64,000 bases of DNA from an uncultured Actinomycetes bacterium. GTDB lineage: Bacteria > Actinomycetota > Acidimicrobiia > Spongiisociales > DATADW01. A model generated the notes under the pieces. It was given only the letters and a program-made list of their open reading frames with translations. It had not been told where the DNA came from and searched no databases. This document shows, in pieces, positions 2,342 through 54,613 of the stretch; position 1 is the stretch's first letter; the number at the start of each line of letters is the position of its first letter. The DNA lies in contig CAWGRK010000002.1 in the NCBI GenBank assembly GCA_963824995.1, positions 124,001 through 188,000 on the forward strand, written 5' to 3'. The position numbers were made by a program, and so were the translations under genes.

Positions 2342-2632
2342 GGAAGGAATACTCCCCTTGAACTCAGGTGGACGAGCATAGATCGGCATCCCGTGGCGCC
2401 TTCTGAAGCCTGCCAGCAAGGTGGTCATGCCCGCCTCGCAGGGCGCGTTGTGCCTACTCAAGAAGTCGAGCCGCGGGGCCGATCTGTGTCTGGTTGAACA
2501 CGCAGCGTGATTAGGGTTTCCAGGCTGCGGGGGGTTTCGGAAAAGCCGCTCGGCCCACGCGTCCTCGAGGCTTTGGAACCGCCCACTCTGGTGGGAGCCA
2601 GCGTTGGTTTACGATGTCGACAGGGAGAGCTG

Positions 2633-4615
2633 GTGAGCTCTGACTGGCGGGTGAAAGTATCGAAAACGGCCGCACACGTGCGCGCCGATATTTCGTTCGC
2701 CGTCATCGACGCCATCCTCGTGGTACTGGCCTACTCCTCGGCCCTCGGGCTTCGGCTGCTCGACCCCGAAACCGCAAGGTTGCGGGGTGAGTTCACCGAG
2801 AGCCTCTTCGTTCCTGCTGCCGGTCATCATTCTCGTGCACCTCTCCACCAACGTCGTCTTCGGGGCATACGGGCACGTGTGGGAGTACGCCAGCGTCGCC
2901 GAGGCCAAGCGGGTGGTGCTCGCTGCCGCCACCGCCATCGGCATCCTCCTCGTCGGGCTCGCCGTCTACACGCTCATCGACCCCGCGGTATCGCCCCCGC
3001 CCCGGCAGGGACCCCCGGTCGCCCGGCGGAGGCCGTGGCGGAGCCGTGGCTGCGTCCGATCCCAGTGGCGGTGGTGGTCACCGGTGGTCTCATGACTCTG
3101 TTCGCCATGGGCCTGGTGCGATTCCGGTCACGTCTCTTCAGCTTCAAGCGCAACCCCGACGGGTCGCGGGTCGAAAGGACGATCATCGTCGGCACCGGAC
3201 GCGCCGCCGCCGAGGTGGCGCGCAGCCTCACGTCGACACACGGTGGCGATGTAGCGGGCTTTCGTCACCGACAGCGCCTACGAGGCGTCACGCCGGCTGG
3301 TCGGTCTCACCGGTGCTGGGCTCGGTCGACGATCTCGCCGAGTTGGTCGACGAGCACGAGGTCGACCAGGTGATCGTCGCCGAAGGCGGCGAGCGCATGG
3401 CACGCAAGGTGCTCGACGCCTGCCTCTACAACAATGCCCGCCTCCGGATCGTCCCCGAGCTCGGAGCCGTGCTCGCAGGTGGGCAGCCGACAGGCGACAT
3501 TCGCGACCTGGAGATCACCGACCTCCTGCCCACGCCCGGCGGTGTCCACCGAGTTGGACGCCGTAGCCAGCTCTGGTCCGGGGGACCCGGGTCCTCGTCA
3601 CCGGTGCCGGCGGGTCGATCGGATCGGAGATCGTCCGCCAGGTGCTCGAGTTCGAGCCCGCCGAGATCGTGGTGGTCGACCACGACGAGACCCATCTCTT
3701 CGAGGCGAACCTGGATTGGAAGAGGAAGACGGGACGGGAACCGGTCCAGGTCCTGTGCGACATCCGCGACCGGGAACGTGTGCGATCGTGTCTTTCTCGA
3801 GACCGAAGCCCGAGGTCGTCTTCCACGCCGCCGCGCTGAAGCACGTCCCCATCCTGGAGTTCTGCCCCGAGGAGGCGGTAGCGACAAACGTCGTCGGGAC
3901 CACGGCACGTGCTCGATGCGGCCCGCGCCGCGGGCGTGCGCCGGTTCGTACTCATCTCCACCGACAAGGCAGTGGCGCCGACCAGCGTCATGGGCAGCAC
4001 CAAGCGGGTGGCGGAGTTGATGGTCCAGGAAGCGGCCTGCGAGGACGACGGCTGCACCTATACCTCGGTCCGGTTCGGCAACGTCCTGGGCAGCCGGGGG
4101 AGTGTGGTCCCCACGTTCATCCGCCAGATCAAGTCGGGCGGACCGGTGACTCTCACCGACCCGGACATGAGGCGATACTTCATGACGGTCGACGAGGCGG
4201 TGCAGTTGGTACTGCAGGCCGCGCCCTCGCCCAGGGCGGTGAGATCTTCGTGCTCGACATGGCCGACCCGGTCCGGATCGGCGATCTGGCGCACCGCCTT
4301 ATCCGACTGGCCGGGATGGTCCCGGGCCGCGACATCAAGGTCGAGGTCACCGGGAGACGCGAGGGTGAGAAGATGACCGAGCAATTGTCGCTCGAGCCGC
4401 TGCTCCCAACGTCGAACCCGAAGATCAACGTGGCTCGCACCGGCGCCTCCCTGGGTGGCGCCATCGGCGACGCCGTCCCCCAACTGGCCAAGCTGGCCGG
4501 AGACGGGGACATGGCCGGGATCCGCGCCCTGCTCGGTGAGGTAGTGGGTGCTTCCTGGTCGCAAGATGTAATACAAGGGGGCGTTCCGGAGGAAGGTGAA
4601 GAAGAGTGGACCTGA
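2633..4615 (+). CDS. Membrane-anchored nucleoside-diphosphate sugar 4,6-dehydratase (CapD/PglF/WbpM family), several indels
   Basis: N-terminal TM helices; [77 protein letters not shown]. Confidence 0.92.
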
Positions 4616-7320
4616 CACGTATCGGACGACTGATCAAGGCCCGGTGGTGGGTCCTTGTGCTGGTGGCGGCGCTCGGCGCCATCCCGGCGGTGGTCATCAC
4701 GTCCCGGCGCAACGACGCCATCCAACCGGTGTTCCAAGCGACACGGACCGTCACCTTCACCCAGGGCGAGGCGGACCGCACGGGCGACGGACTCAGCTCG
4801 GCGGTCGAGGCCGCCCAGATCGACTCGGAAGATGCCAACGAGGAGGCGCTGGCCCGGCTCGGTGGGGCGGCCAGCATCACCGGTGACACCCAGGAGGGCA
4901 CGCTCACCTTCCAGGTGTTCGCCCGCGACCAGGAGACAGCGAGGCAGGAACTGAACGGGATCGTCCGGGCCTACCGCCAGGCGGGTCGGGACGAAGAGAC
5001 TCAAGCGGCACAGGAGAAGCAGGAAGAACTGGACGCGCTGCAGGAACGCCTCGAGGAGATCAGGTCCGAGATACAGGGGATCGATGCCCAGTTGGCCGAG
5101 GACCCCGAGGTCGTGGACGACCGGGAGCTTCTCCAGGAGCAGATCGCCGCACTGGAGGACCGGCTGGCGGATCTCAGGGTGGAGGAAATTCTCGGCCCGA
5201 CACAGAACCCGCAAGCGGAGGAGGAGAGGACCGAACAGGATGTCGCTCGACGATATCGACGAGGTCGAGGCCGGGCTGGAGGAGCTCAATGCCCAGCTCG
5301 AGGCCCTGCCCGCCGAGGGCGAGGCGCCCGAGTCCGCCGAGCAGGTGCAGAAGCAACTGCTCGAGGAGGAGTTCCAGGCCGTCCTCGATCAGCACACCGC
5401 TCTGGCCACCGCCGGTCCCGAGGGCGAGCAGTCGTTCGGGACCGCGGTGACCGAGGACGTCACGCCGCAAGCGGCAAACCTGCTGATCAACGGGTTGCTC
5501 GGTGCGGTTGCCGGGCTGCTGCTGGGGTTGGCGGTACTCATCGTCGCCGACCGGATCAGGCGGCCGGTGTGGACCACCGGGGACCTCGACGCCGTGCCCG
5601 CCTTGGGAGAGGTGCCTGCGAGGACGCCAGTCTCCAGCGGGCCCCGTCCCTGGTACCAGACGGTGCGGCGCTCGCCACGCAAGCAGGCGGTCCAGGCGTT
5701 GCGCGCCGCCATCGACGGCCGCGCCCGCCAGCGTCACCTGGCAGCTCGGGTTCGCCGGCATGGACGTCAGCTCGCGTGACGCCCACGCCCTGGCGGCCGA
5801 CTATGCGATGAGCCTGGCCACCGCTGGGCAACGAGTCCTGCTTGATCGACGGCGACTTCGCCCAGCCCTCCGATCTACCAGAGTACGCGGGTCAGGGGCC
5901 CAGCCTGTCCGATGTGATCGACCCGATGGCGCGCGACAACACCGCAGTCGCCGGGTTCGTCGAGTGGGCGCATCGCCGAGTCGACCGAGACCGGGTCCGG
6001 GCCTGCGCGCCATAAGCGTCGGGGTCGGTCTCGATGATCCGGCCGATGCCGTCGCCGCTCGGCGGGCGGTGCAGTTGATCGATGCCGGCCAGGAGCGCTT
6101 CGACGCTGTCGTGGTCGCTGCCGGTGCCGTGTCCGACGCGACGACCCAAACCCTGCTCTACGACGTGGACCAGACCGTCATGTGCATCCGACCCGGGACC
6201 AGCACCGAGTCGGCGGTCGAAGAGATGTACCGCGACCTCTCGTCGCGTGGGGTGAGCGTGCTCGGGGCAACCCTGATCAACCCCGAGCATCGCGGGCTGC
6301 GCGGCATGTTCAGTCGCAAGGGCCGCGAACGTTCCAGAGTCTCGGAAATCATCATCGAACCGTCGCCGGAACCCCTTCCCAGGCCCGCACCGACGGCTCC
6401 TGTGGTGGCCCCGCCGGTTGCGATGCCCGAACCTGCACCGGAGCCCGTCGGGGCGCTGGCTACTTCGGCGCCAAGCCGACCGTCGGCCAAGGCACTGCTC
6501 GAAGCTCCCGTCTCGCCGCCAGAGCGGGGCCCGGTCGATGGCGAGGTCTCCCCGATGCTCGCCGAGGTGCTCGATGGGGTCGACGTCGGTCGGGGCAAGC
6601 TGGAGGACGAGCTCTACGCACAGGTCCTGGCTCTGCTCACCGGCGCCGGCACCGAGACGGGGGAGCCGGCCGCACAGGTGAACCGCGAGGGGTTCATCCC
6701 CATGGTCGAGATCAAGGACCACTCCACGGTTGGCGAACTGGTGCTTCAGCGGCTCGGAGCAGACCTCGACCCGGCGAGCAAGCGTGCCCTCGACCGCGAG
6801 GTCGCCGCCGTGTTCGGCGCCCAGGATGGCGCCGAGGGTGTAGACGAATGGGTGAGGCGGAAGCTTCTTCGCCCGCCATGTCGCCGAGACCGATCAGCAC
6901 CCCGATGTCTGGCAGATCCGCAGCCGTGAGGGCACTTTCGAGGCATTGGTCCCGGCCGTTCAATGCACCCGTGACCATCTCGACGACCTCCGCACCGGGA
7001 TGCTCCACACCCAGATAGACGGGCTCAACCGCCAGCTGCGAGGCGCCGTCCAGACTGGCCGCAACGACGATGTGGACGAACTCGACGCCCAGGTCAAGGA
7101 GCTGCGCACCTTCGATATCACCCTCGGGTGGCTCTACGAGGGGACGACGCCCGAGGCTCGGATCCGCTATCCGTGGCGGGGAGATCGAAATCAGCCCCAG
7201 GGCTGGGCACCAGAGTTGAGCGAGGGGATCAGGCCCAATTTGGCTCCGCTGCAGCGACTGGGTCTGCTCGCCGCCCCCGTCCTGTCCTGGGACGAGCTCT
7301 CCGCGCTCGCCGGCGAATGA
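4606..7320 (+). CDS. Polysaccharide copolymerase (Wzz/CpsC-CpsD-like) with degenerate kinase domain, Pro-rich linker and C-terminal PglX-like domain; about 4 indels
   Basis: [26 protein letters not shown], coiled coil, second TM LLINGLLGAVAGLLLGLAVLIVADRIR, VPALGEVP, LATAGQRVLLIDGDF; tail QPQGWAPELSEGIRPNLAPLQRLGLL. Confidence 0.75.
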
Positions 7321-8120
7321 GCTCGGCGGCGCGAGCCGCCAAGCAGGCGGTCAAGCTGGCGGCGGCCGCGGGCGACAAGGTCGCCGGTCCACTGCCTGGC
7401 CCCCGGATCCTCATCTATCACCAGGTGGGAGCGGGGACCGGGCTGGAGATGGAGGTCACGGCGGAGCACTTCCGCAACCAAATCGACTGGCTCGGCGAGA
7501 ACGGTGATGTCGTCGATCTCGTCACCGCCGTCGCCTCGCGAGGGCTTCCAGAGTCATCGCGGATGTTCGTCCTGACCTTCGACGACGGCTATGCCGACGT
7601 GTACCGCAACGCCTTCCCGCTGCTGCGTGAAAGGGGGCTCGCCTTCACCCTCTATCTGACGACAGCGCCCATCGAGACGGGGGAGCCTTTGCGCAACGAC
7701 GGGCGCGCCGAGCCGCTCACCTGGGACCAGGTTGCCGATATGGCCGAGCACGGCAGGGTGACCATCGGTGCCCATACCCACACCCATCCCGACCTGCGTT
7801 CGATCGACGAGGCCGAAGTGGCCGAGGAGGTCACCGTCTCCAACCGGTTGATCGAGGAGAGACTCGGGGTGGAGCCGCGGCACTTCACCTACCCCTGGGG
7901 CTATTGGTCGCCTCAGGCGGATCGGGTGGTCAGATCGGCGTACGAGACGGCCACATTGGGGAGCGGAAAGCCGGTGACGGGGGCCACCGACCCGCTGCTG
8001 CTCAACCGGGTGCCGGTGCAACTCAGCGATGGAACCGCCTTCTTCAGGCACCGGATGGTCGGGGGCCTGCGGCTGGAGGACCGGGTCAGGCGGCTGGTGC
8101 GCGGCTACCGCGGCCCATGA
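7317..8120 (+). CDS. Polysaccharide deacetylase (NodB/CE4)
   Basis: ILIYHQV, LTFDDGY, GAHTHTHPDL, FTYPWG; ATGA overlap with upstream stop. Confidence 0.92.
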   Translation: MSSAARAAKQAVKLAAAAGDKVAGPLPGPRILIYHQVGAGTGLEMEVTAEHFRNQIDWLGENGDVVDLVTAVASRGLPESSRMFVLTFDDGYADVYRNAFPLLRERGLAFTLYLTTAPIETGEPLRNDGRAEPLTWDQVADMAEHGRVTIGAHTHTHPDLRSIDEAEVAEEVTVSNRLIEERLGVEPRHFTYPWGYWSPQADRVVRSAYETATLGSGKPVTGATDPLLLNRVPVQLSDGTAFFRHRMVGGLRLEDRVRRLVRGYRGP

Positions 8121-9006
8121 GTGCTGGCTTCCTCCGGCTTGGGACGGCGCAACCCGATCGCGGTCAGGAGGGCCACCGCTCCCGCCAGCACGAGCCCGGC
8201 GACGAGAACGGCGTCATCGACCGAGTCGAGGGTCCCGGCGAGTCTCCCGGCGAGAAGAACCACCCCGGCGTGAGTGGCCACGAGGAGCCACTCCGAGGGT
8301 GGTGGGGACCAAGCATCCGGAGAACAGGCGGCCGAGCAGAACGGCGATCGGTTCGACCACAAACACGCCGAGCGCAGCCAGCCCGCCCACGATCGCCGAG
8401 CCTCTGGTGGCGCCGTCGCGGAATACGACCCACGCCAGAACGCCGAAAAAGGCGAAGATGCCGCCCGAGCCCAGCCTGGCCAGCCGCAGCGGCCAGCCGA
8501 GGAGGGCCACCGGCAGGGCCGCACCGAGGAGGACAAGGGCGCGCTCGGTGTCTGGGACCACGACGAACACCCCCAGAGCACTTCCGGCGGCGAGCACCGG
8601 TCCGGCCCAACCCGCCGGGCGCCGCTGCTCGGACCAGGCGGCGAGCGCTCCGCCCAGCGAGATAGCCGCCACCGCGGCGATCCGACCCCACAACGGCTCG
8701 AAGAGATCTCCGGCGAAGTACCAACAGCGTTGCCGGTCCAATCGACAAAACCCCGACCAATGGGATGAGAGAGGGCCGGAGGTCGCCGACAACCCCTATC
8801 AGCGCCAGGAGGCCGACGGCGATCATCACCGGGTTTGGTGGCCTCAGTACGGCGAGAAAGGCAGTGGCGATCGCCAGGCCGGCCACAGGGAGCAGGCGTC
8901 GGCGCAGCAGAAGCGCAGCCACGGCGCAGGCGACGGCGGCAGCGCCGCCGTAGGCCAACCCGGCGTAGAGCTCGGGACGAAGGACAGCTTCGATGAACTC
9001 ACCCAC
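8105..9006 (-). CDS. Hypothetical multi-pass membrane protein
   Basis: Three overlapping minus-strand frames join into a highly hydrophobic protein (GLAYGGAAAVACAVAALLL...GVFVVVPDTERALVLLGAAL...LLVATHAGVVLLAGRLAG); TACCCT 8 nt upstream of GTG. Confidence 0.6.
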
Positions 9007-9042
9007 GGCGGGGGAGGGTACCGGGGCGGTCCTGGCAGGCCG

Positions 9043-10296
9043 TTGAGGATCGCCATGGTCAATCAGCCTGGCGCCGGGTCACGCCCGCCGAACCCGACCG
9101 TCTCGATCGGGATCTGGAGTTCCGAAGTGGCCGGCCGCATGGTCAGGGCCGGCCACAAGGTCACCGTCTACGCCAGCGGGGACCGAACCGGGACCACCCG
9201 CCAGAGCCATGACGGAGTCGACTATCGCTTGCTGGCGACCCTCCCCGACACGGTCATGTCCCGGATGCTCCGGTACCTGCCGTCGAGAAGGAACCCGCGG
9301 CGGCCACGGCTCACCTCGGTTCTCACCCATCTCGGGTTCGCCGTCCAGGCGGCGATCGATATCCGCCGACGCCGACCCGACGTGGTCCACATACAGAGCC
9401 AGTTCGCCTTCGCCCGAGTGGTCAGGGTGCTCAATCCTCGGGTGCCGATCGTGCTCCACCTCCACAACGAGTGGCTCTCCGACCTGCACCCTGCACAGAC
9501 CGCCCCTGCTGTGCGGGCGGCCGATGCTGTCATGACCTGTAGTGACCATGTCACCGCGAGGGCGCGACTCGCCCATCCGGCTCATGCGGCGCGAATACGC
9601 ACCATCCCCAACGGGGTCGACACCGCCGCTTTCGGCAGTGGCGGGGGGCACGTCGGCGAGGGTTTCAACGTGCTGTTCGTGGGGAGGATCTCCCCCGAAA
9701 AGGGTGTGCACACGTTGATCGATGCGGTGGTGGAAGTTGCATCCGACGATGACGGGGTGAGGCTGACGTTGGTCGGCCCGCACAGCGTTCTGCCTGCCGA
9801 GGCGGTAGTTCGCGGATCGACCGACCCCCGGGTCCGAGACCTTGCCAGGTGGTACGGAGGGTCCCCCTACCGCTCTCAACTCGAGCAGAGGATTCCCGAT
9901 GGCGCTGGAGTCCCGGGTCGAATGGGCCGGTGCCGTGCCCTACCGGGACCTACCCGGCAAGTACGCCGAAGCGTCTGTACTGGTCAATCCCTCTCTGAGC
10001 GAGTCATTCGGGATGACCGTGGTCGAGGGTATGGCGTCTGGGCTGCCGGTGATCGCCACCAGAGTCGGTGGTCAAGAGGAGTTGGTGGACGACGGGATCA
10101 CCGGTCTGCTCATCGAGTCGGAGGATCCGGCTCAACTCGCCGATGCCATCCGCCAGGTCCGCAGAGACCCCGAACGCGCCCGGCTGATGGGCGAGGCAGG
10201 CAAGGAAGCAGGCCAAGATCTTCGATTGGGACAGGGTCACAGGTGAAGCCCTCGACCTCTACTCGAAACTGGTGCAAGAGCGAGGATCCGAAATGA
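9043..10296 (+). CDS. Glycosyltransferase family 4
   Basis: LRIAMVNQ, IPNGVD, LFVGRISPEKGVHTL, PSLSESFGMTVVEGMASGLPVIATRVGG (EX7E). Confidence 0.9.
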   Translation: MRIAMVNQPGAGSRPPNPTVSIGIWSSEVAGRMVRAGHKVTVYASGDRTGTTRQSHDGVDYRLLATLPDTVMSRMLRYLPSRRNPRRPRLTSVLTHLGFAVQAAIDIRRRRPDVVHIQSQFAFARVVRVLNPRVPIVLHLHNEWLSDLHPAQTAPAVRAADAVMTCSDHVTARARLAHPAHAARIRTIPNGVDTAAFGSGGGHVGEGFNVLFVGRISPEKGVHTLIDAVVEVASDDDGVRLTLVGPHSVLPAEAVVRGSTDPRVRDLARWYGGSPYRSQLEQRIPDGAGVPGRMGRCRALPGPTRQVRRSVCTGQSLSERVIRDDRGRGYGVWAAGDRHQSRWSRGVGGRRDHRSAHRVGGSGSTRRCHPPGPQRPRTRPADGRGRQGSRPRSSIGTGSQVKPSTSTRNWCKSEDPK

Positions 10297-11218
10297 CCGT
10301 CACGTTGATCGCGGCTGGCGCGCTCGAGTTCGGGACCGCCGCTGGCGCCGTGCCGCCCGCCACTGGGTCGTCGCCGACGATGCCCAACTCCGCCGCCCGA
10401 CATTGGTGGTAGCGCCCCACCCGGATGACGACGTGCTGGGGTGCGGCGGCACCATCGCCCGGAAGCGGAGGCTTGGATGTGGATGTCGCCGTGGCGGTGC
10501 TCACCGACGGGGCATTCGCCAATCGGTCACTGATCGACCGCGCCGAGTTGACCGCCATCCGGGGACGGGAGGAGATCGCCTCGCTCGACGAGCTTGGGGG
10601 TCGGTCCCCACCGCGTTTGGTTTCTCGGGTTCCGCGATGGCGCCCTGCGACACGAGGAAGAGGCGGCCGCCGGCCAACTGGTGCCCGATCCTCGAGGAGG
10701 TCCGCCCCGCCGAGGTGTTCGTCACCGCCGCCGACGACGGTCATCCCGACCACGAGGCGGCCTATCGGATCGTGAGGCAAGCACTCGCCTCGACCGGATC
10801 CGAAGCCGTGGTCGTCGAGTACCCGGTGTGGTGGTGGCAGCACTGGCCCTGGGGCCCGCTCCCCGTCAGGGGCAGGGGTGGGGTACGAAAGCTCGCTCGA
10901 CGGATGAAGATCGCCCTCACCGCCGCCTCCACTGGCGAGTCCCACCTCGGGCTTCACCTGGGCGGTCCCGGTGGCCGAGGTACTCGAGCAGAAGCAAGCG
11001 GCGATCGCCGCCCACGTCTCGCAGGTGACCCGCTATCTCGACGACCCCCGCTGGGAGAGCCTGCTCGACGAGGGCGGCGGCGAGTTCCTCGAGCGGTTCG
11101 TCTCGTCGTACGAGTTGTTCCGGAGGGAAGACGGAAGACGGAAGACGGAAGACGGCAGACGGCAGACGGCGGACGGCGGACGGCAGCCAGATTCCCTACG
11201 TCGCCGGGAAATGGGTAA
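10293..11218 (+). CDS. PIG-L/LmbE family deacetylase (3' end uncertain; runs into a heptamer array)
   Basis: VVAPHPDDDVLGCGGTIA, LTDG, RGREEIASL, DGHPDH, VEYPVW, KQAAIAAHVSQ. Confidence 0.85.
11126..11188 (+). repeat. 7-bp tandem array, 9 units: (GGAAGAC)4(GGCAGAC)2(GGCGGAC)2GGCAGCC
   Basis: Read directly from sequence. Confidence 0.95.
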
Positions 11219-40456: not shown

Positions 40457-43400
40457 ATGTTGAGAAAACGGTTCGTGACGCCGCTCATCGCGTTTGTCGC
40501 TTTTGCGCTCCTAACAGGGGCTACTCTGCAGCAGGCCCCGGGGGGTGGCGACATGGGGCTTCCCTCCTCGTCCTCTTCGACCTCTCGTTCCACGGCCGCC
40601 GCTCCGGTGGAGACGCTGGGCGATCCGTTCCAGACCGGGTTCGAGGTCGTGACCGAGCTGTCGGGGCTGAATGTGCCCACCGCGGTGAGGTTCAGTTCGG
40701 ATGGCCGCGGTCTTCGTCTCCGAGAAGGCGGGGAGGATCAAGGTGTTCGACTCCCTCGACGACGCCACGCCAACGACCATCCAGCTCCCAGGTGCCACTC
40801 CGACCTATGACTACCTCGACCGTGGTTTCCTCGGGCTGGCTCTCGACCCCAACTTCCCTGCCGAGCCCTGGGTCTATGGGCTCCACACCCGTGTTCGTGA
40901 CGGGTACACCTTCAACGACGAGTGCCCCGCTGAGAACAGCGGCGGGTGTCCGGCCGACGGCAGACTCTTCCGCTTCCAGGTCACACCGACCAACACTGTC
41001 GTCGCCGGCACCGAGCAGACCCTCCTCACCGGCAACTGGTGCCAGCAGTTCACATCCCATTCGATCGGGACCATCGAGTTCGGCCCCAACGGTGAGTTGT
41101 ATGTCGGCGCCGGCGATGGAGCCAACTTCATCGTCGCCGACTACGGACAGCGCTCCGGGGGTGGAATCCCAGAGAACCCGTGTGGCGACCCGCCGGTTGG
41201 TGTGGGGGGCGACCAGCAGCCCATCACCAGTCAGGGTGGAGCCCTCCGCAGCCAGGACCCCCGCGTCCTCGGCGACCCGGCCACCTTCGATGGGTCGATC
41301 CTGCGGGTGGACCCCGACACCGGTGCTGCCTTCTCCGGTAACCCAGGCGGTGCCGGCGACGACCGGATCGTCGCCTACGGCCTCCGCAACCCATTCCGCT
41401 TCACGGTGCGTCCCGGGACCAACGAACTGTGGATCGGCGACGTCGGCTGGTCTGCCTGGGAGGAGATCGACCGCCACCAGAACCCGACCGACGTGGTGAG
41501 GAACTTCGGATGGCCTTGCTACGAGGGCAATGGTCGTCAGCCCGGTTACGACGGGCTCAACAACAACATCTGCGAGGGTTTGTACGACTCGCCCGGGGCG
41601 GTGACCGCTCCCTATTTCACCTACCAGCACGGTCAACCGCTGGCCGGGGGGTGCAGCAACGACACCAGCTCGATCGCCGGGATGGCCTTCTACGAGGGCG
41701 GCGATTACCCGGACGAATATGACGGAGCCCTCTTCTTCTCCGACTACTCGCGCGGCTGCATAATCGTCATGTTCCCTGGAAGCAGCGGCCTACCCGCCAC
41801 TAACAACATCGAACGGTTCGTCACCGGCGCTGTCTCCGGTGAACCTCGAGATCGGCCCCGACGGCGACCTGTTCTATGTGGACATAATCGCCGGCACGGT
41901 CGAGCGGGTCCGGTTCACCGAAGGGCCGGGGAACAACCCGCCAACCGCAGAGGCGACCGCCGACCCCGAGTTCGGCCCGGCGCCGCTCACCGTCCAATTC
42001 GACGGATCGGGCTCGACCGACCCAGACGGCGACGCCCTGACATACACCTGGGACCTCAACGGTGACGGATTCTTCGACGCGGGCGACGGTCCCAACCGGT
42101 TCCTGGTAAGCCCAACCTTCACCTACAACACGGTCGGGCTCCGCACCGTCCAACTTCGGGTTCGCGACCCCTCCCAGGCACAGGACTTCGACAGCGTCAC
42201 CATTGACGTCGGCAACACGCCGCCGACCGCCACCATCACGTCGCCGGCGACCGGGTCCGAATTCTCCGTGGGCCAGACGGTGACATACGCCGGAACCGGC
42301 ACCGACGCCCAGGACGGGACGCTCCCGGCCAGCGCCTTTTCGTGGAAGTTCGATGTCCACCACTGCGCCCGGATCAACCCCAGTGACTGCCATGTCCATC
42401 CGCTGCAGACGGTCGAGGATGTGACCGGCGGCAGCTTCGTCTTCCCAGACCATGAGTACTTCTCGTGGGTGGAGATGACACTCACCGTGACCGATTCGAA
42501 CGGGGCCACCTCCGATCCGGTGACCCGACGGCTCAATCCGAAGCTGGTTGATCGTCACGTTTGCCACCAGCCCCGTGGACTTGAAGGTGACGGTGGGCTC
42601 GGCCACCTACCCGGCACCGGAGACGCTCGAGTTCGCCGTCGGCTCGACGATCTCGGTGAGCGTGGAGACACCACAGGCCAAGGGTGGGATCAGCTACAAG
42701 TTCGCCTCGTGGTCGGACGGCAAGGCTCGTGTCCACGAGTTGGTCGTGCCCGGCTCCGACAAGACGTACACCGCCCGCTTCACGGCCCCGCCCCCGGCCA
42801 ACAAGGAGCCGGTTGCGGTCATCCGGACCAACGAAAAGTCAGGGATCGTGCCGTTCAAGGTTCAGTTCGACGGAACGGCTTCGCACGACCCCGACGGCGA
42901 CTCCCTTTCCTACCGCTGGGATCTCGACGGCGACGGGGCTTACGACGATTCGACGGCGAGCAAGCCGAGCCGCACCTTCGACGACCCAGGAGCACACCGT
43001 GTGAGGCTCAAGGTCACCGACGGCAGGGGCGGGGTCGACACCGCCCAGGTCACGATCGTGGCCGGACCGCAGCCGGTTGGTGCCAGCTTCACCGATGTTC
43101 CGGTCGGGTATGTGTTCTACGAGGACATCGAGTGGCTCCTCGCCGAAGGGGTCACCGAGGGCTGCAACCCCGAGGGGACGATGTTCTGCCCGACCGAGTC
43201 CGTGACGAGGGGCCAGATGGCGGCGTTCCTTGTGCGCTATCTGGGTCTCACCGACCCCGGTCCAGGGGATTGGTTCGTCGATGACGACGGGAGCCTGTTC
43301 GAGTCCGAGATCGATCGTCTCGCCCAGGCCGGGATCACGCTGGGGTGCAACCCTCCGGCCAATGACCAGTTCTGCCCACTGGAGTCGGTGACAAGGGCCC

Positions 43401-43615
43401 AGATGGCGACCTTCCTCGATCGCGCCCTCGATCTCCCATCGGCACCTTCGTTCGGCTTCACCGACATCGACACCTCGGTGCACCGTGCCGCGATCAACCG
43501 TCTTGCCGCCGCCGGGATCACCCGGGGTTGCGCCGACACCTGGTTCTGCCCCGACCTGCCGGTGACCCGCGGCCAGATGGCCGCATTCCTCCACCGCGGC
43601 GACGAGTACCGCTAA
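40457..43615 (+). CDS. Secreted PQQ-dependent sugar dehydrogenase with PKD domains and C-terminal S-layer homology (SLH) repeats
   Basis: Signal [82 protein letters not shown]...FCPTESVTRGQMAAFL x3. Confidence 0.9.
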
Positions 43616-46335: not shown

Positions 46336-47110
46336 CTAGAGCTCGAGAAACTTCCTCACCGAAGCGGCGAGACCGGGCGCGGTGGCGACGAAGCCGGTCA
46401 GTTTGGGGTTCTCACGGTTGAAGAGGGGTTCCTTGCCCTCAAGGGTGAGCAGCGATCCCGCCGCCGGCGAGGACGATGGCGGCTCCTGCGGCGACGTCCC
46501 ATTCGTGTTTGGGGACCAGCGTCCACGTGGCGTCGGCCAGACCAGCGCCGACGAGGCCGAGCTTGTAGGCGACCGATCCCATGTTCCGCACCGAGATGTC
46601 GGTGCCGAAGAACCGGTCCCACTCACCGCGCTTCACCTCGCTCCGACTGGCGAGCACCAGGGCGCCGCTCAGAGCGGACCTGTCGGTGCACGCCGCCGGC
46701 TCGCCGTTCAGAGTCACGCCATGGCCGGTGGCTCCCAGGATCAAGTGGTCCGGTCCTGGGCTGAGGATCCCGCCGGCCACTGGCACCCCATCCTCCACGA
46801 GCGCCACCGAGACACACCACTCCGGTATTCCTCTGACGAACTCGCGGGTGCCATCGAGCGGGTCGACCACCCAGACCCGACTGCAACCGAGCCGGGACGT
46901 GTCGTCGGCGGTCTCTTCGGACAGCCATCCTTCTCCAGGTTGAGGGAGGGCTTGGTGAAGCACCTCGTTGATGGCCAGGTCGGCCGCGGTAACCGGGTCG
47001 TCACCAGTCTTGGTCCTCGCCGCCACCTCCCCGGGGGTGAAGTCCTCCAAGACACCGGCGGCGAGCTTCAAGCCGTGCTCGATGCGGGACAGGTCGTCGG
47101 ATCTGTTCAT
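46336..47110 (-). CDS. cysQ: 3'(2'),5'-bisphosphate nucleotidase (inositol monophosphatase family)
   Basis: DPVTAAD, WLSEE, WVVDPLDGTREF, SRSE, GSVAYKL, EWDVAAG; operon with sat. Confidence 0.88.
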
Positions 47111-47128
47111 TGAGTGCTCTCCTGTTGT

Positions 47129-48899
47129 TCAGAATGGCCAAAACACCGGGACAAGGGCCACCAGCGTCACCACGACAAGAAGTGTGAGGGGTGCCCCGAG
47201 CCGCGGGTAGTCGGCGAACCTGTAGCCGCCCGGGCCGTAGACCATCGTGTTGGTCTGGTATCCGATCGGGGTGAGGAAGTCGACCGAACTGGCGACGGCG
47301 ATTGCGATGGCGAAACCCCGCGGCTCGAGGCCGGCGCCGGTGGCGGCTGCCACCGCGATCGGGAACATGAGCAAGGCGGCCGCGTTGTTCGAGACCAACG
47401 CGGTGAGTATCACTGTCGCCACCACCACTCCGGCGAGGATTCCCAGAGGTCCGAGGAAGTCGAAGGCCTCCACCATCCCGTCGGCCACGATCTGGGCGAG
47501 GCCGGATGTTTCGACCGCAGCCGCCACACCGAAGGCTGCGGCGATGACGAGGATCACATCGAGGTCCACCGCGTCACGAGCCTCGCCCGGGGTCACCGCG
47601 CCGAACAGGACGAGGGCGACCGCCCCGATGAGGCTCGCCTGCAGAATTGGAATGATCTCGAGGGATGCGGCGAGAACGATCGCCAGGGTTATCCCGCCGA
47701 CAACCATCGCCTTTGGCGGTGGGTACCGGCGGAGTGCCCCCGGTTGAGGACACCAACAGGAAGTCGCGCCGGTCGCGCCACCTGTCGCGGAAACCCGGGT
47801 CGGCTATGAGGAGGAGCGTGTCGCCGACGCGGAGCGGAACCGACCCCAGCTTGGCGTCGATCCGCTGGCCGGCGCGGTGGATGGCGACCACCGCCGCCTG
47901 GTATCGCTGTCGAAACCCGATCTCCTTGAGCGTGGTGCCCACCATGGGCGACGTGGCACCGATCACGGCCTCGAAGTAGCGCGCCTTGCTTGTGTCCAGT
48001 TCGACCAGGTGGGTCTCCTCGGCCGAGGACAGTCCTCGGATACCCTGCAGGTCGAGCACCTCGTCGGCCATCCCGACGAATCGCAGGACGTCACCACCGT
48101 GCAGGATGGTGTCGGGCGCGACCGGTGCGATCACCTCACCCTCGCGATCCAGGGCAGCGAGGAACACCCCCTTGAGATGGCGAAGACCGCCGGCTTCGAC
48201 CGCCTTTCCGTCGAGGGTGCCGGCCTCATTGACCACCATGTCGAGGACGAACCGCTTGGTGTCGTCTTCCGCCTCCTGTCTGACCGACCGGCGTACCCGC
48301 AGCAGCCGCGGGGCGAGCAGGACGAGCAGGACACCACCCACGATCGCTATCGGGAGCCCGACACGTGTGATCTCGAAGAACCCGATTGGGGGTTGACCGG
48401 CGTTCTCCAACAGCCCCGACACGACGATGTTGGTCGAGGTCCCGATAACCGTGACCACCCCACCTAGCAGAGCTGCAAAGGAGAGCGGCATCAGGTACGT
48501 GGAAGGTGACCGGCCCCGATCCTCGGCCCACTTCTCCACCTGCGGCAAGAGCATGGCGACGATCGGCGTGTTGTTGAGGAAGGAGGAGGCGGCCATGGTG
48601 GGGAAGACCAGCCTGGCAAGCGATCGACGGACACCGACCGTGGCGCCGAGTGTGAGGCGCACCACCGGAGTTAGTGCCCCGGTCTTCTCCACGGCGCGCG
48701 CCAAGACGAACAGGGCGGCGACCGTGATCGGCGCAGGGTTGGCAAAGCCGGCGAAGGCCTGCTCGGGAGTGACGATCCCGGCGACGAGTACCGCCACCAT
48801 CCCGCCGACCATCGCTGCCGCAGGAGCCACCACGTCGCGCACAAGGACGACGAGCACGATGACCACCACGGTCAGCGTGAACCAGGCCTCCCAGGTCAA
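47129..48899 (-). CDS. SLC13/DASS permease with two TrkA-C domains (putative sulfate transporter)
   Basis: AFAGFANPAPITVAALF, SSFLNNTPIVA, LMPLSFA..LGG..T.IGTSTN, SNNAAALLMFP, FLTPIGYQTNTMVYGPGGYRFADY. Confidence 0.9.
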
Positions 48900-48977
48900 C
48901 GCGAGCCTCCCGTGGCGCTCACCCGGCGGAGGGGACGGGGCTTCGATTGGGTCCTCGTCGGCAGGAGTCGCCGGTGC

Positions 48978-50713
48978 TCAGTCCGCCCCGCCGTTGGCGG
49001 CGAGGTAGCCGAGCCGCTCCAGATGGAGCATCACCTGGTTGGCGGCCTCCTCCGGGGAGAACTGAGTGGTGTCGATGACGACCTCGGCATCGGTCGGCTC
49101 CTCGTATGGATCGGAGATCCCGGTGAACTCCTTGAGGATCCCGGCACGCGCCTTGGCGTAGAGGCCCTTGCGGTCGCGGTCCTCGCAGATCTCGATCGGC
49201 GTGGCGACATGGACCAGGTTGAACCCGCCGGCCGGCTCGATCATGGCGCGGACGTCCTTGCGGGTCTGGTCGTACGGCGCGATCGGGGCACAGATGGCGA
49301 TGCCACCGTTCTTGGTGATCTCCGATGCGACGTATCCGATCCGCCGGATGTTGAGGTCGCGGTGCTCCTTGGAGAACCCGAGCTCGGAGCTGAGGTGCTT
49401 CCGCACCAGGTCGCCGTCGAGCAGGGTGACGGGGCGACCCCCGATCTGGAGCAGCTTGACCAGCAGAGCGTTGGCGATGGTCGACTTGCCCGAGCCCGAT
49501 AGCCCGGTGAAGAACACCGTGAACCCCTGCTGTGAGCGCGGTGGGTGGGTCTTGCGCAGCTCGCGGGCGACCTCGGGGTAGGTGAACCACTCCGGGATCT
49601 CCCGGCCTTCGGCCAGCCGCTGGCGAAGTTCGGTCCCCGAGATGGACAGGGTGTGGGCCCCCTCCGGAATCTCGTCCACCGGGATGTAACGGTCCTCGTC
49701 GGGGAGGTAGACCATCATCTTGAAATCCACCATGTGGACGCCGATTTCCTCTTCGTGCTTGCCAAGCAGATCCTGGGCGTCGTATGGGCCGTAGAAGGGC
49801 GTCCCCGAGGAGTCGCTACCCGGGCCGGCATGGTCGCGACCCACGATGAGGTGGGTGCACCCGTGGTTCTTGCGGATGATCGCGTGCCAGACGGCTTCGC
49901 GGGGTCCGCCCATCCGCATCGCCAGAGGCAAGAGCGAGAGGGTGGCGGTGAACTTCGGGTAGTGGGACAGGACAGCCTGGTAGGCGCGCACCCTGGTGTA
50001 GTGGTCGACGTCGCCCGGCTTGGTCATCCCCACCACCGGCTGGATGAGGAGGTTGGCCCCAACCTCGGCCGCGGCCCGCATGGTCAGCTCGACGTGGGCG
50101 CGGTGCATCGGGTTGCGGGTCTGGAAGGCGACCACTTCGGTCCACCCCAGACGGGCGAACTCGTCGCGTACCTGGGCCGGGGTGCGCCGGAGTTCGGTGT
50201 AGTCGTAATGGATGGGCATCTGGATGCCCTCGATGGCCCCGCCCGACGTACCACGGGTTGCTCCGGTTGAGCAGATGGCCGACTCCGGGGTGGGTGGGGT
50301 CGGTCGTGCCGAAGACACTGCTTGCCTCGGCCTCCCGGTCAGGCTGCCACAGGTCGCTCGACGGTGAGCACGGCAAGCATGACACCCTCGGGATCACGCA
50401 AAGCAAGGCGCGAACCGGTCTCGAGACCTTGGGCGACTTCGTCGGTGACGTCGAGGGTGATCGGTATCGGCCAGAGTGTTCCGTCGGCCAGCCTCATCTC
50501 GGCGCAGACCCGCTCGTAGTCGTCCCGGCCGAGGAAGCCGCGCAGCGGCGAGAAACCTCCGTTGAGCAGCAGTTCGAGATCGCACAACTGGCGCTCGGTC
50601 AGGTCCCACGATGGCCAATCGGCCGACTCGGTCTTGAGCTCGGCGGCTCGCTCCGGGTCGACGATGAGGTCGACGAGGGTCCCCCCGTGGGGCGTGATGA
50701 GGTGGTCAGCCAC
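48978..50713 (-). CDS. sat: Bifunctional sulfate adenylyltransferase / adenylylsulfate kinase (PAPS synthesis)
   Basis: [49 protein letters not shown]; kinase [30 protein letters not shown]. Confidence 0.95.
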
Positions 50714-50873
50714 GAAATCTGCTCCTAGCAATCGCGAAACGGGCCCGGGGGCGATCCAGACTCTCTTCGAGCCGGGACCGCGCCGCTCCGGGCGGGTACC
50801 AGAGTCTACCGACCGCAGTCGGCGCCCTGTGATGATGCAATCGGCGCCGTGATGTCGCGACTTGAATCACTGA

Positions 50874-51723
50874 ATGGAACCCCTGGTGCCCGTCGTGTTC
50901 GTCGCTACCGGCAGGTCCGGATCGACACTGCTCATGGAGTTGCTCGGCACGTCGCGTGATGTCCTCTTCGAGCGGGTCTACGCCTATGAGCGGGCCTACC
51001 TCACCTATCTGCTCCAGTGGGCCCGCCTCCCGATGGAGGGCGTAGCTTCGGCAGAGCGCTGGCACCGCGCCTCGATCGACCAGGTCCGTCACCTCTCCGC
51101 CGGCAAGCTCTTCGGCGGCATCCCGTGGCCGGACCGCCGGTTGCTCGGGATCGGCGAGCCTCCGCTATGGGTTCCGATCCTGCGGGCGAGTTGGCGTGTC
51201 TTCTCGGACCGGATGATGAGCTACGGCAGGAATCGATCCACCGCCCCGGTACTACGTCGAGACGGGACCCATCTGGGTTCCGAGGATGGCGCGGCGCGCC
51301 CTGCCGGTCCGCACCGGGTACCTGGTGCGCGACCCACGTGACCAGATGGTCTCGATCGCTGCCTTCGTCGGCCGCCGACATCCCAGCTTCGGGTTTCGCC
51401 CCGACGACACCCCGGAGACCTATGCCCCGCGCTTCGTCGAGCGGCAACGCCAACTGCTCCGGGCGGCGAGCAACCCCGGCCCGCGCACTCTCGTCATCCG
51501 ATACGAGGACCTCGCCCTCGACATCGCCGCCACCGCCGCCCGGCTCGGTTCCTGGCTCGACATCGAACTCGATCCGACCCGAGTGCCGGCACACCTCGAC
51601 CACCGGACCAGCCCCAATGCCATCTCGTCCGTAGGCCGCTGGCGCACAGAACTCGAACCCGAAGTTGCCCAGTTCATCGTCGAGCAACTGGGCGACGAGA
51701 TGAAGAAGCTGGGGTACGAGTAG
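50874..51723 (+). CDS. Sulfotransferase family protein
   Basis: VFVATGRSGSTLLM (5'-PSB), LVRDPRDQMVS (3'-PB), IRYEDL, SSVGRWR. Confidence 0.88.
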
Positions 51724-51850: not shown

Positions 51851-53681
51851 ATGCCGACCAAGGCGGAACTCGACGAGCTTGCCGCACAGCTCAGCGTCGA
51901 TGCGATCCGCGCCTCGACCCGGGCGGGATCGGGTCATCCCACATCGGCGTTGTCGGCGTCGCACCTGATGGCGGTCCTCTACGCCAACCATCTCCGCTGG
52001 GATCCAAAGGATCCAGCACCACCTCGGGGGCGACCGGGTCATCTTCTCCAAGGGTCACGCCACGCCCGCTGCTCTACGCGCTGCTCAAAGCGGTCGGGGC
52101 GATCACGGATGATCAACTTCTGACCTACCGCAAGTTCGGAAGCCCGCTCCAGGGGCACCCCATCCCGACCGAGGACATGCCATGGGTGGACGTCGGCACC
52201 GGTGCCCTCGGACAGGGCCTGCCAATCGGGTTCGGGATGGCGATGGGGATGCGGCTCCGTCAACTGCCGGGGCGGGTGTGGGTGCTCATGGGCGACTCCG
52301 AGATGGCCGAGGGGTCGGTATGGGAGGCGATGGAGAACTCCTCTCACCACGGGTTGCGCAACCTGGTGGGGATCCTCGACATGAACCGACTCGGCCAGCG
52401 GGGACCGACCATGTTGGAGTGGGACGGCGACACGTATGCCCGCCGCGCCGAGGCATTCGGGTGGGAGGCGATCCAGGTCGACGGGCACGACGTCGACGAC
52501 ATCGACGCTGCCTATGGGCGGGTGAACGAGACCGACCGACCGGTTCTGATCGTCGCCAAGACGATCAAGGGTCACGGAGTCTCCTTCCTCGCCGACAGGG
52601 ATGGCTGGCACGGGAAGGCTCTGTCCGAGGAAGAGGCGGCCACCGCAGTTGAAGAACTGGGCGGGGAGCGCTCGCTCACCATCAACGCCGGCACCACCCC
52701 AGCCCGTCCCCGACGATGGGGCTTCACCCGAGGAGTACACCAGGCCCACCTTCACCGAGCCACTGGCGACCCGAAGGGCGTTCGGCAAGGCGCTTGCCGC
52801 CCTGGCGCACTCCCGCTCCGATCTGGTCGTCATCGACGGTGAGGTTGCCAACTCGACCTATACCGAGTTCTTCCAAAAGGAGGCGCCGGACCGCTTCATC
52901 GAGGTCTTCATCGCCGAGCAACTCATGGTTGGAGCGGCGGTCGGACTCCAGGTCATCGGGCTCACCCCCGTTGCCGCCACGTTCGGGGCATTTCTCACCC
53001 GGGCCTACGACTTCATCCGGATGGCCGCCGTCTCCGGTGCCCACATGGTCCTCGCCGGGTCGCATGCCGGTGTGTCGATCGGGCAGGACGGCGCCTCGCA
53101 GATGGCGCTCGAGGACTTCTCGATGATGAGGTCGATACACGGATCGACGGTGCTCAGCCCGGCCGACGCCACGTCCACGGTCCGGCTGGTGGAGGCGGCC
53201 CTCGATTGGCCCGGGATCGCATTCATTCGGACCATCCGCGAGGACACTCCCGCCCTATACGGGCCCGAGGATGAGTTCCCCATCGGGGGCAGCAAGGTGA
53301 TCCGCCACGAGCGACGGACGACCGGGCGACCCTGGTGGCAACTGGAATCACGGTGTTCCAGGCGCTGGACGGCGGCCGATCAACTGGCCGAAGATGGGGT
53401 CTCCGTCGGCGTGCATCGACTGCTATTCGATCAAGCCGATCGACGGGGAGACGCTGCGGAGTGCGGCCATACCGCTCATCGTCGTCGAGGACCACTGGGC
53501 CGAGGGTGGGCTGGGTGACGCTGTGCTGGCCGCGCTCGCCGAGGACGAGCTCTCGGGAAGAGTCGTCCACCTCGCAGTGACCGAGATGCCCCGCTCCGGA
53601 GCTCCCGACGAGCTGCGCGACGCCGCCGGGATCTCCGCCACCGCCATCGTCACCGCGGTGCGGGAGGCGATCGGAGCCTGA
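51851..53681 (+). CDS. tkt: Transketolase
   Basis: GSGHPTS, IFSKGHA, LQGHP, TGALGQG, GDSEMAEGSVWEA...N (ThDP motif), IAEQ, FLTRAYD, GQDGASQ, VEDH. Confidence 0.93.
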
Positions 53682-53767
53682 CTTCCGCTCGGAGCTCGAC
53701 TTCGGAGCGACTGAGGGAGGGTCGATCGGCCAGCCCGGGGTTCGACTGCGTGCGGCAACCTGCTCCC

Positions 53768-53773
53768 TAGACT
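53768..53773 (+). promoter_or_regulatory. Putative -10 box (TAGACT) of a leaderless wzm transcript
   Basis: TANNNT 6 nt upstream of GTG 53780; no SD sequence. Confidence 0.5.
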
Positions 53774-53779
53774 CAGGTC

Positions 53780-54613
53780 GTGACTTCCAGCACTGTTACC
53801 GAACCAGCGCGCCTGCCCGAACCGGTCGGCTACCTGGGCGAGCTGTGGCGTCGTCGCGAGTTCGCCTGGTACCTGGCCATGGGCAAGCTGAGGGCCCGAA
53901 ACGCCTCAACAGCCCTGGGTTTGTTGTGGTGGGTGCTCAACCCGCTCTTGCTCGCCGGTGTCTACTTCTTCGCCTTCGGTGTGATCCTGGGCACCCAGCG
54001 GGGCGACCCGAACTACCTCGCCTACCTGGTCTCCGGCCTCTTCGTATTTCACTACACGACACAATCGATGACGGCAGGTGCGAACAGCATCTTGACCAGC
54101 GGAAAGTTGTTGGTGAACCTTCGGTTCCCCCGGATGATCCTCCCGATCTCGGCAATAATCGAGGCAGGGATCGGCTTCTTGGTGTCGTTGGTCGTCTTCT
54201 TTGCCCTGATCATCCCGCTCAGCGAAATCCGACCGTCGTGGAGCATTGCGTATATCGCACCGGCATTCGTGCTACAGACACTCTTCAACGTGGGGCTTGC
54301 CGCGTTGGTCGCACGGCTGGCCGTCCCCTTCCGGGACATTGGCAATCTGTTGCCTTTCCTGATCCGGTTGTGGCTCTACCTGTCGCCAGTCATCTGGCCA
54401 ATATCGATGATCGAGCGCGCCCCGGCATGGGCGCAGACGGTCATGAAGAGCAACCCGATGTACTGGATCCTCGAGATCTACCGTGGAGCCCTGCTCGCCC
54501 GCCCTATCAGCACCACAGCCTGGCTCCTGGCCGGAGCCTGGGCGGTGGTGGTCCTCCTGGTCGGCGTCACCGTGTTCGTGCGCCAGGAGGGAAGCATGGT
54601 GAGGTACTTGTGA
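53780..54613 (+). CDS. wzm: ABC-2 polysaccharide/teichoic acid export permease
   Basis: LWRRREF, LGLLWWVLNPL, FPRMILP, FRDIG, YLSPVIW, NPM; intact ORF. Confidence 0.9.
   Translation: MTSSTVTEPARLPEPVGYLGELWRRREFAWYLAMGKLRARNASTALGLLWWVLNPLLLAGVYFFAFGVILGTQRGDPNYLAYLVSGLFVFHYTTQSMTAGANSILTSGKLLVNLRFPRMILPISAIIEAGIGFLVSLVVFFALIIPLSEIRPSWSIAYIAPAFVLQTLFNVGLAALVARLAVPFRDIGNLLPFLIRLWLYLSPVIWPISMIERAPAWAQTVMKSNPMYWILEIYRGALLARPISTTAWLLAGAWAVVVLLVGVTVFVRQEGSMVRYL

Follow-up and report, generated by a model that had tools for sequence, protein, structure and literature searches.

We analysed a stretch of 64,000 nucleotides from an uncultured Actinomycetes bacterium (contig CAWGRK010000002.1), referred to throughout as the window. 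On its + strand lies a gene (4606..7320, with the stop codon at 7318-7320) encoding a protein of about 902 amino acids. It is an Actinomycetota co-polymerase for polysaccharides, of the PCP-2/Wzc type, and it ends in a domain homologous to the distal portion of the C-terminal domain of BrxX/PglX (E. coli BrxX residues ~996-1165), a protein of the BREX (bacteriophage exclusion) phage-defence system. An earlier note on this DNA had proposed such a fusion, with the PglX-like domain on the cytoplasmic face of a glycan-assembly protein. As detailed below, the architecture that it described holds, and the defence role that it suggested is disfavoured.

The reading path was obtained by mapping P0001, an uninterrupted protein of 902 amino acids, onto the window. 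P0001 is 99% identical to the window piece and was retrieved with the last 154 codons (6856-7317) as query, as were seven further full-length relatives of 670-904 amino acids. The path runs through frame 1 (4606-5244), frame 2 (5246-5737), frame 3 (5748-5843), frame 1 (5842-5937), frame 2 (5972-5995), frame 3 (5994-6860) and frame 1 (6862-7317), so that the gene holds six single-base +1 shifts (2712 nucleotides, versus 2706 expected from P0001). Five of these lie upstream, near 5245, 5738-5747, 5842, 5938-5971 and 5994. The sixth, an extra G in CGGAAGCTTC (6861..6863, + strand), splits the C-terminal domain between frames 3 and 1; it is the sole break in the region covered by the earlier note, which had placed an indel near 6863, and it amounts to one extra base relative to intact P0001. 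The peptide strings quoted in that note are all present: the frame 3 translation up to 6860 contains LEDELYAQVLALLTGAG, then NREGFIPMVEIKDHSTVGELVLQRLG, then VDEWVRR, and the frame 1 translation from 6862 opens with FFARHVAETDQHPDVWQIRSREGTFEALV and runs to 7317.

Six frameshifts in 2.7 kb, several of them outside homopolymer runs (those near 5245, 5843, 5995 and 6862, as judged by eye), raise the question of whether the gene is a decaying pseudogene in this genome, or whether the fusion is an artefact of assembly or gene calling. However, all shifts are +1, the translated pieces are 96-99% identical to P0001, and the frames used contain no in-frame stops. Neighbouring genes are broken in the same manner; those at 336-1482, 2621-4615, 8024-10274 and 10367-11189, for example, align to intact genes of a related locus, L004, in two to five frames. 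The orthologous gene is uninterrupted in six of eight related loci (L002, L003, L004, L006, L007 and L008), which come from different assemblies, and is broken in L001 and L005, both long-read-style loci from metagenome-assembled genomes (MAGs). The window has the look of an assembly left unpolished, and the contig name of L004 (k141_) suggests a short-read assembler. Because the neighbours are split alike, and because the gene is broken in L001 and L005 too but whole in six other loci, errors of assembly are the likeliest source of the six frameshifts, rather than gene decay, and a pseudogene or an artefactual fusion appears improbable. We rejected the idea that the fusion stems from a chimeric assembly, as the architecture recurs in the six intact loci and in 44 cluster representatives that combine a Wzz-like part, a kinase-like part and the PglX-like domain; these also support the fusion in one reading frame. 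An open reading frame of 333 codons on the minus strand (5895-6893), with a high G+C content at third codon positions, has no family hit and is most likely a shadow frame opposite a gene of high G+C content.

Membrane anchors, kinase fold and linker

The fusion protein begins with a first transmembrane helix (residues 15-33; 4648..4704, on the + strand like all features of the gene described here), where the Kyte-Doolittle value over a 19-residue window reaches 2.33. A weak Pfam match to Wzz, below the cut-off, covers residues 1-57 (E=0.0013). An extracytoplasmic Wzz/Wzc-like coiled-coil domain follows (residues 34-295; 4705..5491, interrupted by the frameshift near 5245), and in the AlphaFold2 model of the full-length protein it contains long helices at residues 109-268. 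The second transmembrane helix (residues 296-314; 5492..5548, hydropathy 2.63) is followed by a basic DRIRRP stretch. Profile and Foldseek comparisons then identify a domain resembling bacterial tyrosine kinases (BY-kinases) at residues ~346-568 (5642..6314), a region that contains four of the frameshifts, after which comes a proline-rich linker (residues 569-645; 6315..6545) in which the predicted local distance difference test (pLDDT) of the full-length model falls below 50. Between residues 586 and 664, 24% of the positions are proline. The PglX-like domain occupies the remainder (6546..7317), its profile-matched part being residues 665-900 (6603-7311).

The Wzz/CpsD (BY-kinase)-like region and proline-rich linker that had been noticed upstream of the PglX-like domain are therefore real by profile, Foldseek, hydropathy and model. 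A profile of the family aligns residues 97-559 with E. coli Wzc residues 230-709 (E=1e-10), and its cytoplasmic part also matches the BY-kinases BceF (7e-13), Etk, CapAB and VpsO. The full-length AlphaFold model has a pLDDT of 83.4 and an overall predicted template modelling score (pTM) of 0.44; in a Foldseek search it retrieves Wzc first (E=7e-19, ~680 columns), and against kinase-domain targets it gives template modelling (TM) scores of 0.73-0.82, normalised to the target. With E. coli Wzc (PCP-2a; PDB 7NHR, 9I2Q), the protein shares two transmembrane helices flanking a helical extracytoplasmic domain, a cytoplasmic P-loop kinase fold and a location in a polysaccharide cluster. Since the transmembrane helices lie at residues 15-33 and 296-314, the usual co-polymerase topology would place the whole of the protein beyond residue 314, and with it the PglX-like domain, in the cytoplasm, in agreement with the side of the membrane that had been proposed.

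Unlike Wzc, the fusion protein has neither the Walker A Lys nor the Walker B Asp, its C-terminus carries no Tyr cluster, and its kinase fold is followed by a disordered linker of ~77 residues and an extra domain of ~240 residues. When aligned to BceF and Wzc, none of 42 family members has GK[S/T] at the Walker A columns, the column of the Walker B Asp holds V, A or G, and the last 30 residues contain no Tyr in 10 of the 10 members checked. Because these three elements are missing, the kinase domain is predicted to be catalytically dead and would be unable to run the phosphorylation cycle that controls Wzc. By analogy, there is a precedent for a scaffold pseudokinase in this pathway: the accessible text of PMC12004946 describes EpsV/EcpK of Myxococcus xanthus as a PCP-2 protein working with a bacterial tyrosine pseudokinase as scaffold. 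The two systems have in common a BY-kinase fold without catalytic residues or phosphorylatable tyrosines and a Wzx/Wzy-type context. Unlike EpsV/EcpK, the pseudokinase described here is fused to the co-polymerase and carries a PglX-like domain, belongs to a monoderm actinobacterium and is known by computation.

Because residues 569-645 are predicted to be disordered and the overall pTM is 0.44, the C-terminal domain is modelled as a separate, independently folding module of ~240 residues on a flexible tether of ~77 residues. One relative, P0005 (670 amino acids), has a Wzz/GNVR-like N-terminus and the PglX-like domain, with the kinase-like part replaced by a different middle region. That P0005 retains the domain next to an unlike middle region supports its being an independent module. 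We do not claim that this middle region is a GGDEF domain, for which only a weak, sub-threshold likeness was found (PDB 6zxm, E=0.079; 3pjw, E=0.69).

Kinship of the C-terminal domain with PglX

The likeness to the C-terminus of PglX was significant by four independent routes and goes well past what chance would give. Firstly, the PADLOC model of PglX, PDLC02528, matches the 154-amino-acid window piece with E=1.1e-9 (model positions 934-1055 of 1125) and all six full-length homologs scanned with E-values of 1.1e-8 to 1.8e-13. Secondly, a phmmer search with the same 154-amino-acid piece against 1.84 billion cluster representatives yielded 169 matches at E≤1e-3, 72 of them at E≤1e-10. Among 156 phmmer proteins, 53 are of the fusion type, 40 have PglX N-terminal sequence and 63, mostly short fragments, could not be assigned. 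The long matches (~1200-1700 amino acids) align at their extreme C-terminal end, the best being P0041 (E=1e-22, 40% identity). When 15 long PglX-type matches were tested, all contained the Pfam family Eco57I and 12 passed the curated cut-off of the NCBIfam BREX-1 PglX family (NF033452, 500 bits); the other three (1001-1098 amino acids) are probably truncated. Against NF033452 the C-terminal piece of the window scores 11 bits (E=0.064), which is sub-threshold, and the PglX relatives score 520-696 bits.

Thirdly, a profile built from 31 domain sequences was compared with the PDB, where it matched Salmonella PglX (8C45/8Q56, residues 1016-1185, E=3e-15) and E. coli BrxX (9EWZ, residues 996-1165, E=1e-14) and nothing else below E=0.08. 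Fourthly, the domain of the L004 ortholog (256 residues) was modelled with AlphaFold2 (pLDDT 93.1, pTM 0.89) and searched against the PDB with Foldseek. All six matches at E≤1e-3 are BrxX/PglX chains, the next match having E=0.34, and the best, 9EWZ_C, has E=2e-6 and a query-normalised TM score of 0.60 over 273 columns. The fold is shared over the whole 256-residue model and consists of a beta-sheet and a two-helix bundle. The C-terminal domain has no Pfam match at E≤1, in either the window pieces or the full-length homologs, and a feature search of the ESM Atlas with P0001 residues 660-902 gave no usable match.

Unlike BrxX/PglX, the fusion protein has no N-terminal bundle, methyltransferase, target recognition domain (TRD) or spacer helices, and the domain sits on a membrane protein. 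The methyltransferase families of Pfam (Eco57I, MmeI_Mtase and N6_Mtase) are absent from the window pieces, from P0001, P0005, P0006 and P0008, and from the fusion-type rows.

In the accessible text of PMC11341690, Went et al. describe this PglX region as "of unknown function", and in that of PMC11842806, Drobiazko et al. describe the domain as unique to type I BREX, with no detectable homolog outside. A PglX-like domain on a Wzz/Wzc-type protein was not found in the openly accessible literature, and the words Wzz and polysaccharide do not occur in the accessible text of a 2026 comparative BREX survey. The suggestion that no fusion of this kind had been described stands within that coverage.

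We then compared the residues kept and lost in the two classes. Nineteen positions are at least 80% conserved in both, clustered in the FFxRH...PxxWHxxS motif and the C-terminal tail; the pattern PxxxxGxxxNxxPxQxxGxL is likewise common to BrxX/PglX and the fusion domain. The core motif FFxRH......PxxW(H/Q)xxS spans residues 752-771 (6865..6924), where F753, H756, P764, W767, H768 and S771 each reach at least 80% conservation in fusion-type and PglX-type domains. Conservation in the family peaks in the segment GWLYEG...PW...QPxGWxP..SEGIxPNxAPLQRLGLLAxPVL (residues 839-891; 7126..7284), which has the top mean column value of all regions (0.58), with columns that are invariant among eight homologs 31-86% identical to P0001; its P867, G872, N876, P879, Q881, G884 and L886 are common to PglX-type domains. 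A tail motif, PW...QPxGWxPDxxDGVxxNxxPLQxxGLL, is common to the fusion family and the nearest PglX clade (P0041, P0038), in which identity to the fusion domain reaches 40%. In the profile comparison the tail (7126-7284) was left unaligned to E. coli and Salmonella PglX, the match ending at profile position 174 of 237. Because the tail motif is unaligned to these two solved proteins, PglX proteins may comprise sub-types with different C-terminal ends.

The two classes differ in charge and in putative ligands. In the accessible text of PMC11842806, metal ligands of the BrxX C-terminal domain are named, the region is described as running along DNA with charge-reversal mutants that abolish defence, and the mapped basic residues are described as contacts to DNA or Ocr, K1076E/K1077E abolishing defence. 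Went et al. report that the equivalent Salmonella lysines form salt bridges with Ocr (accessible text of PMC11341690), and both papers place Ocr on the face of this PglX domain that carries positive charge. Read by hand from the profile alignment, the metal site D997, D999, D1012 and Y1113 of BrxX corresponds to N, E, S and M in the window; the first Asp of D997-x-D999-G-I-x-P-L is replaced in the hand-mapped counterpart motif NREGFIPMV (6681..6707). Position 691 (BrxX D997) is D or E in 83% of PglX-type versus 9% of fusion-type domains, and position 693 (BrxX D999) in 91% versus 28%. Similarly, K1076-K1077-R1078 corresponds to D-Q-H, and by hand mapping R1145 corresponds to D and K1152 to A, while K1048 sits in a loop missing from the family profile. 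Position 761 (K1076) is K or R in 91% of PglX-type versus 4% of fusion-type domains, and position 763 (R1078) in 97% versus 4%. Fusion-type domains have a median net charge of -10 (58 rows, duplicates among them) versus a near-neutral -1 for PglX-type domains (34 rows). Most fusion-type domains are strongly acidic, and in the clade of the window the net charge is -15 to -18, about -16 for the window's domain. By this comparison, the fusion domains appear to keep the hydrophobic and structural core and to have lost the basic residues that contact DNA or Ocr, along with most of the acidic metal ligands.

These losses bear on whether the domain might retain a PglX-like binding of nucleic acid, and so tether or sense DNA at the membrane. 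The path of the PglX region along DNA and the loss of defence in its charge-reversal mutants would favour such a role, as would a winged-helix-like element described in this region in the accessible text of PMC12839542 and the net positive charge of a few fusion clades. However, with no more than 4% of fusion-type domains being basic where PglX has its conserved basic residues, a strongly negative median charge and the loop of K1048 gone, we regard DNA binding as decidedly improbable for the family.

A maximum-likelihood tree of 92 domains (57 fusion-type, 35 PglX-type) was computed without a root. A single branch separates all 57 fusion-type from all 35 PglX-type domains, with SH-like approximate likelihood ratio test (SH-aLRT) support of 99 in a quick LG+G4 analysis and 98.5 under a mixture model, and with ultrafast bootstrap (UFBoot) 96 and SH-aLRT 100 in a careful search. 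The domain of P0005 nests within the fusion clade, beside the group of the window (99*). Because all fusion-type domains fall on one side of this single branch, the fusion arose once, and recurrent independent fusions are ruled out. The earlier note had spoken of a defence domain being co-opted, a direction of transfer that the clean split in this unrooted tree does not support.

Gene neighbourhood and the case for a defence role

The fusion gene lies between genes of sugar metabolism. Upstream is a CapD-like (Polysacc_synt_2) gene (2621..4615, + strand), split between frames, with Pfam matches on 3567-3836 and 3882-4373. Downstream is a polysaccharide deacetylase of 267 amino acids (7317..8120, + strand; Pfam Polysacc_deac_1, E=6e-25), whose ATG shares bases with the TGA that closes the fusion gene in the window (ATGA). 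The deacetylase starts -4 to +4 nucleotides from the fusion stop at all six intact junctions (the window, L003, L004, L006, L007 and L008), an arrangement which indicates that the fusion gene is translationally coupled to a deacetylase predicted to be cytoplasmic. The order CapD-like gene, fusion gene, polysaccharide deacetylase is kept in 8/8 loci, even though identity between their fusion proteins falls to ~30%. All eight are Actinomycetota MAGs, five of them titled Acidimicrobiia. Within 1-23 kb, the window also carries sugar-chain genes for GT4, epimerases, a CapD-like protein, two deacetylase types, GT1, a nucleotidyltransferase and RmlC.

A more specific proposal, and a sharper form of the explanation that we favour below, is that the PglX-like domain acts as a regulatory lid, docking on the ring of dead kinase domains or on the coupled deacetylase. 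Its flexible tether and the translational coupling would suit such a role. The retention of the domain by P0005, which has no kinase-like part, speaks against it, as does the absence of confident inter-domain packing in the full-length model (pTM 0.44). A prediction of the complex between the deacetylase and the domain scored 0.01 versus a mark of 0.32, a result that counts neither for nor against binding. We consider a lid unlikely.

Pfam and PADLOC were run on 108 reading-frame segments, which together make up 92% of the window. No BREX family besides the PglX-like domain was found in them, the usual pglX neighbours brxA, brxB, brxC, pglZ and brxL included, nor any other defence family of PADLOC save generic cross-matches of ABC ATPases. 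A tblastn search with three PglX N-terminal parts (methyltransferase and TRD) returned nothing in the window or in the eight related loci, and no BREX gene lies within 10 kb of the fusion gene as far as the contigs reach (that of L006 is 7,084 bases long). The window is thus as the earlier note had described it, with neither a methyltransferase core nor another brx gene, and in this, too, the fusion gene differs from BrxX/PglX.

Surface glycans commonly serve as phage receptors. A module linked to defence could accordingly be imagined in one of two forms, both raised in the earlier note: a sensor or decoy for BREX inhibitors that mimic DNA, or a scaffold tying BREX to the synthesis of the receptor glycan. 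The only known relatives of the domain are in BREX-1 PglX, whose corresponding region binds Ocr and may contact other BREX proteins (accessible text of PMC11341690 and PMC11842806). Yet the face that Ocr binds is basic, and in the fusion domain the counterparts of the Ocr-binding residues are acidic or neutral and the overall charge is strongly negative, which disfavours the sensor or decoy. As for the scaffold, an interaction role is plausible for glycan assembly; its link to defence is disfavoured by the conserved sugar-biosynthesis operon in all eight loci and by the lack of BREX or other defence families, including PglX parts, in the regions searched. The domain model also has no match at E≤1e-3 among predicted viral structures. 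We therefore hold a defence-linked module to be very improbable.

Further Pfam matches lie elsewhere in the window. On the minus strand are an inositol-monophosphatase/CysQ-like gene (46442-47128), a CitMHS/TrkA-C transporter (47132-48977) and a fused ATP-sulfurylase/APS-kinase with a PUA-like domain (48981-50866), and on the + strand is a sulfotransferase-like segment (51220-51720). Given that this sulfate-activation set (46442-51720) adjoins glycan genes, the surface polysaccharide may be sulfated. An ABC-2 membrane component with an ABC ATPase (53581-55458, + strand) is possibly a glycan exporter of the Wzm/Wzt type; the cross-matches of this ATPase to the PADLOC models mad3 and mad8 were taken as generic ABC similarity. 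A segment with PKD and S-layer-homology domains (42524-43612, + strand) likely encodes a cell-surface protein of a monoderm envelope.

Proposed function and its significance

We lean, with moderate confidence, towards a phosphorylation-independent PCP-2/Wzc-type co-polymerase with a dead kinase, in which the PglX-like domain is a putative module for protein docking or oligomerisation. Such a protein would act in the polymerisation or export of a surface glycan without phosphorylation, much like the EpsV/EcpK pseudokinase system. Because catalytic residues and phosphorylatable tyrosines are missing, control of the pseudokinase would pass through protein-protein contacts. The PglX-like domain would swing beneath the membrane on its flexible linker, docking proteins or driving oligomerisation, and would stand in for the lost tyrosine tail in regulation. 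Since its fold has been stripped of the DNA-binding surface, docking or control of oligomerisation is its likeliest job, and it would be neither a DNA-binding nor a defence module.

Several observations weigh against this account. A GK[S/T] tripeptide occurs elsewhere in the kinase-like region of 10 of the 42 family members, although we take these to be chance occurrences. Some fusion clades are neutral or basic, up to +6 (for example P0020 and the clade of L006), so that nucleic-acid binding is possible for some members. The correspondence of residues to BrxX is a profile alignment read by hand, and the BREX negatives cover ~64 kb of this genome and at most ±10 kb of the eight others. Insertions outside homopolymer runs are not the commonest signature of long-read error, so that decay of the gene in this one genome retains a small probability. 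Finally, the docking role proposed for the domain is a computational prediction.

The family has something to offer to BREX research. The distal region at the C-terminus of PglX/BrxX is left unexplained in the accessible text of two structural papers, and the fusion family provides a second, independent context for the fold, and the first outside phage defence. Within this family, the fold dispenses with the metal site and with the basic patch for DNA and Ocr. What it retains, on both sides of a deep split, is the FFxRH...PxxW...S core together with the QPxGWxP...NxxPLQxxGLL tail. These retained features therefore offer themselves for mutagenesis in BREX, in the search for the surface that licenses restriction, and the two classes form a natural "separation-of-function" comparison. 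There is also a very small chance that the domain is a portable adaptor coupling a BREX-type complex, or an unrecognised relative of one, to the surface-glycan machine of these Actinomycetota; if so, phage sensing and receptor synthesis would communicate at the membrane. On the glycan side, the preferred reading would add a type of phosphorylation-independent co-polymerase that is distinct and seems to be restricted to one clade, a whole domain standing in place of the tyrosine tail.

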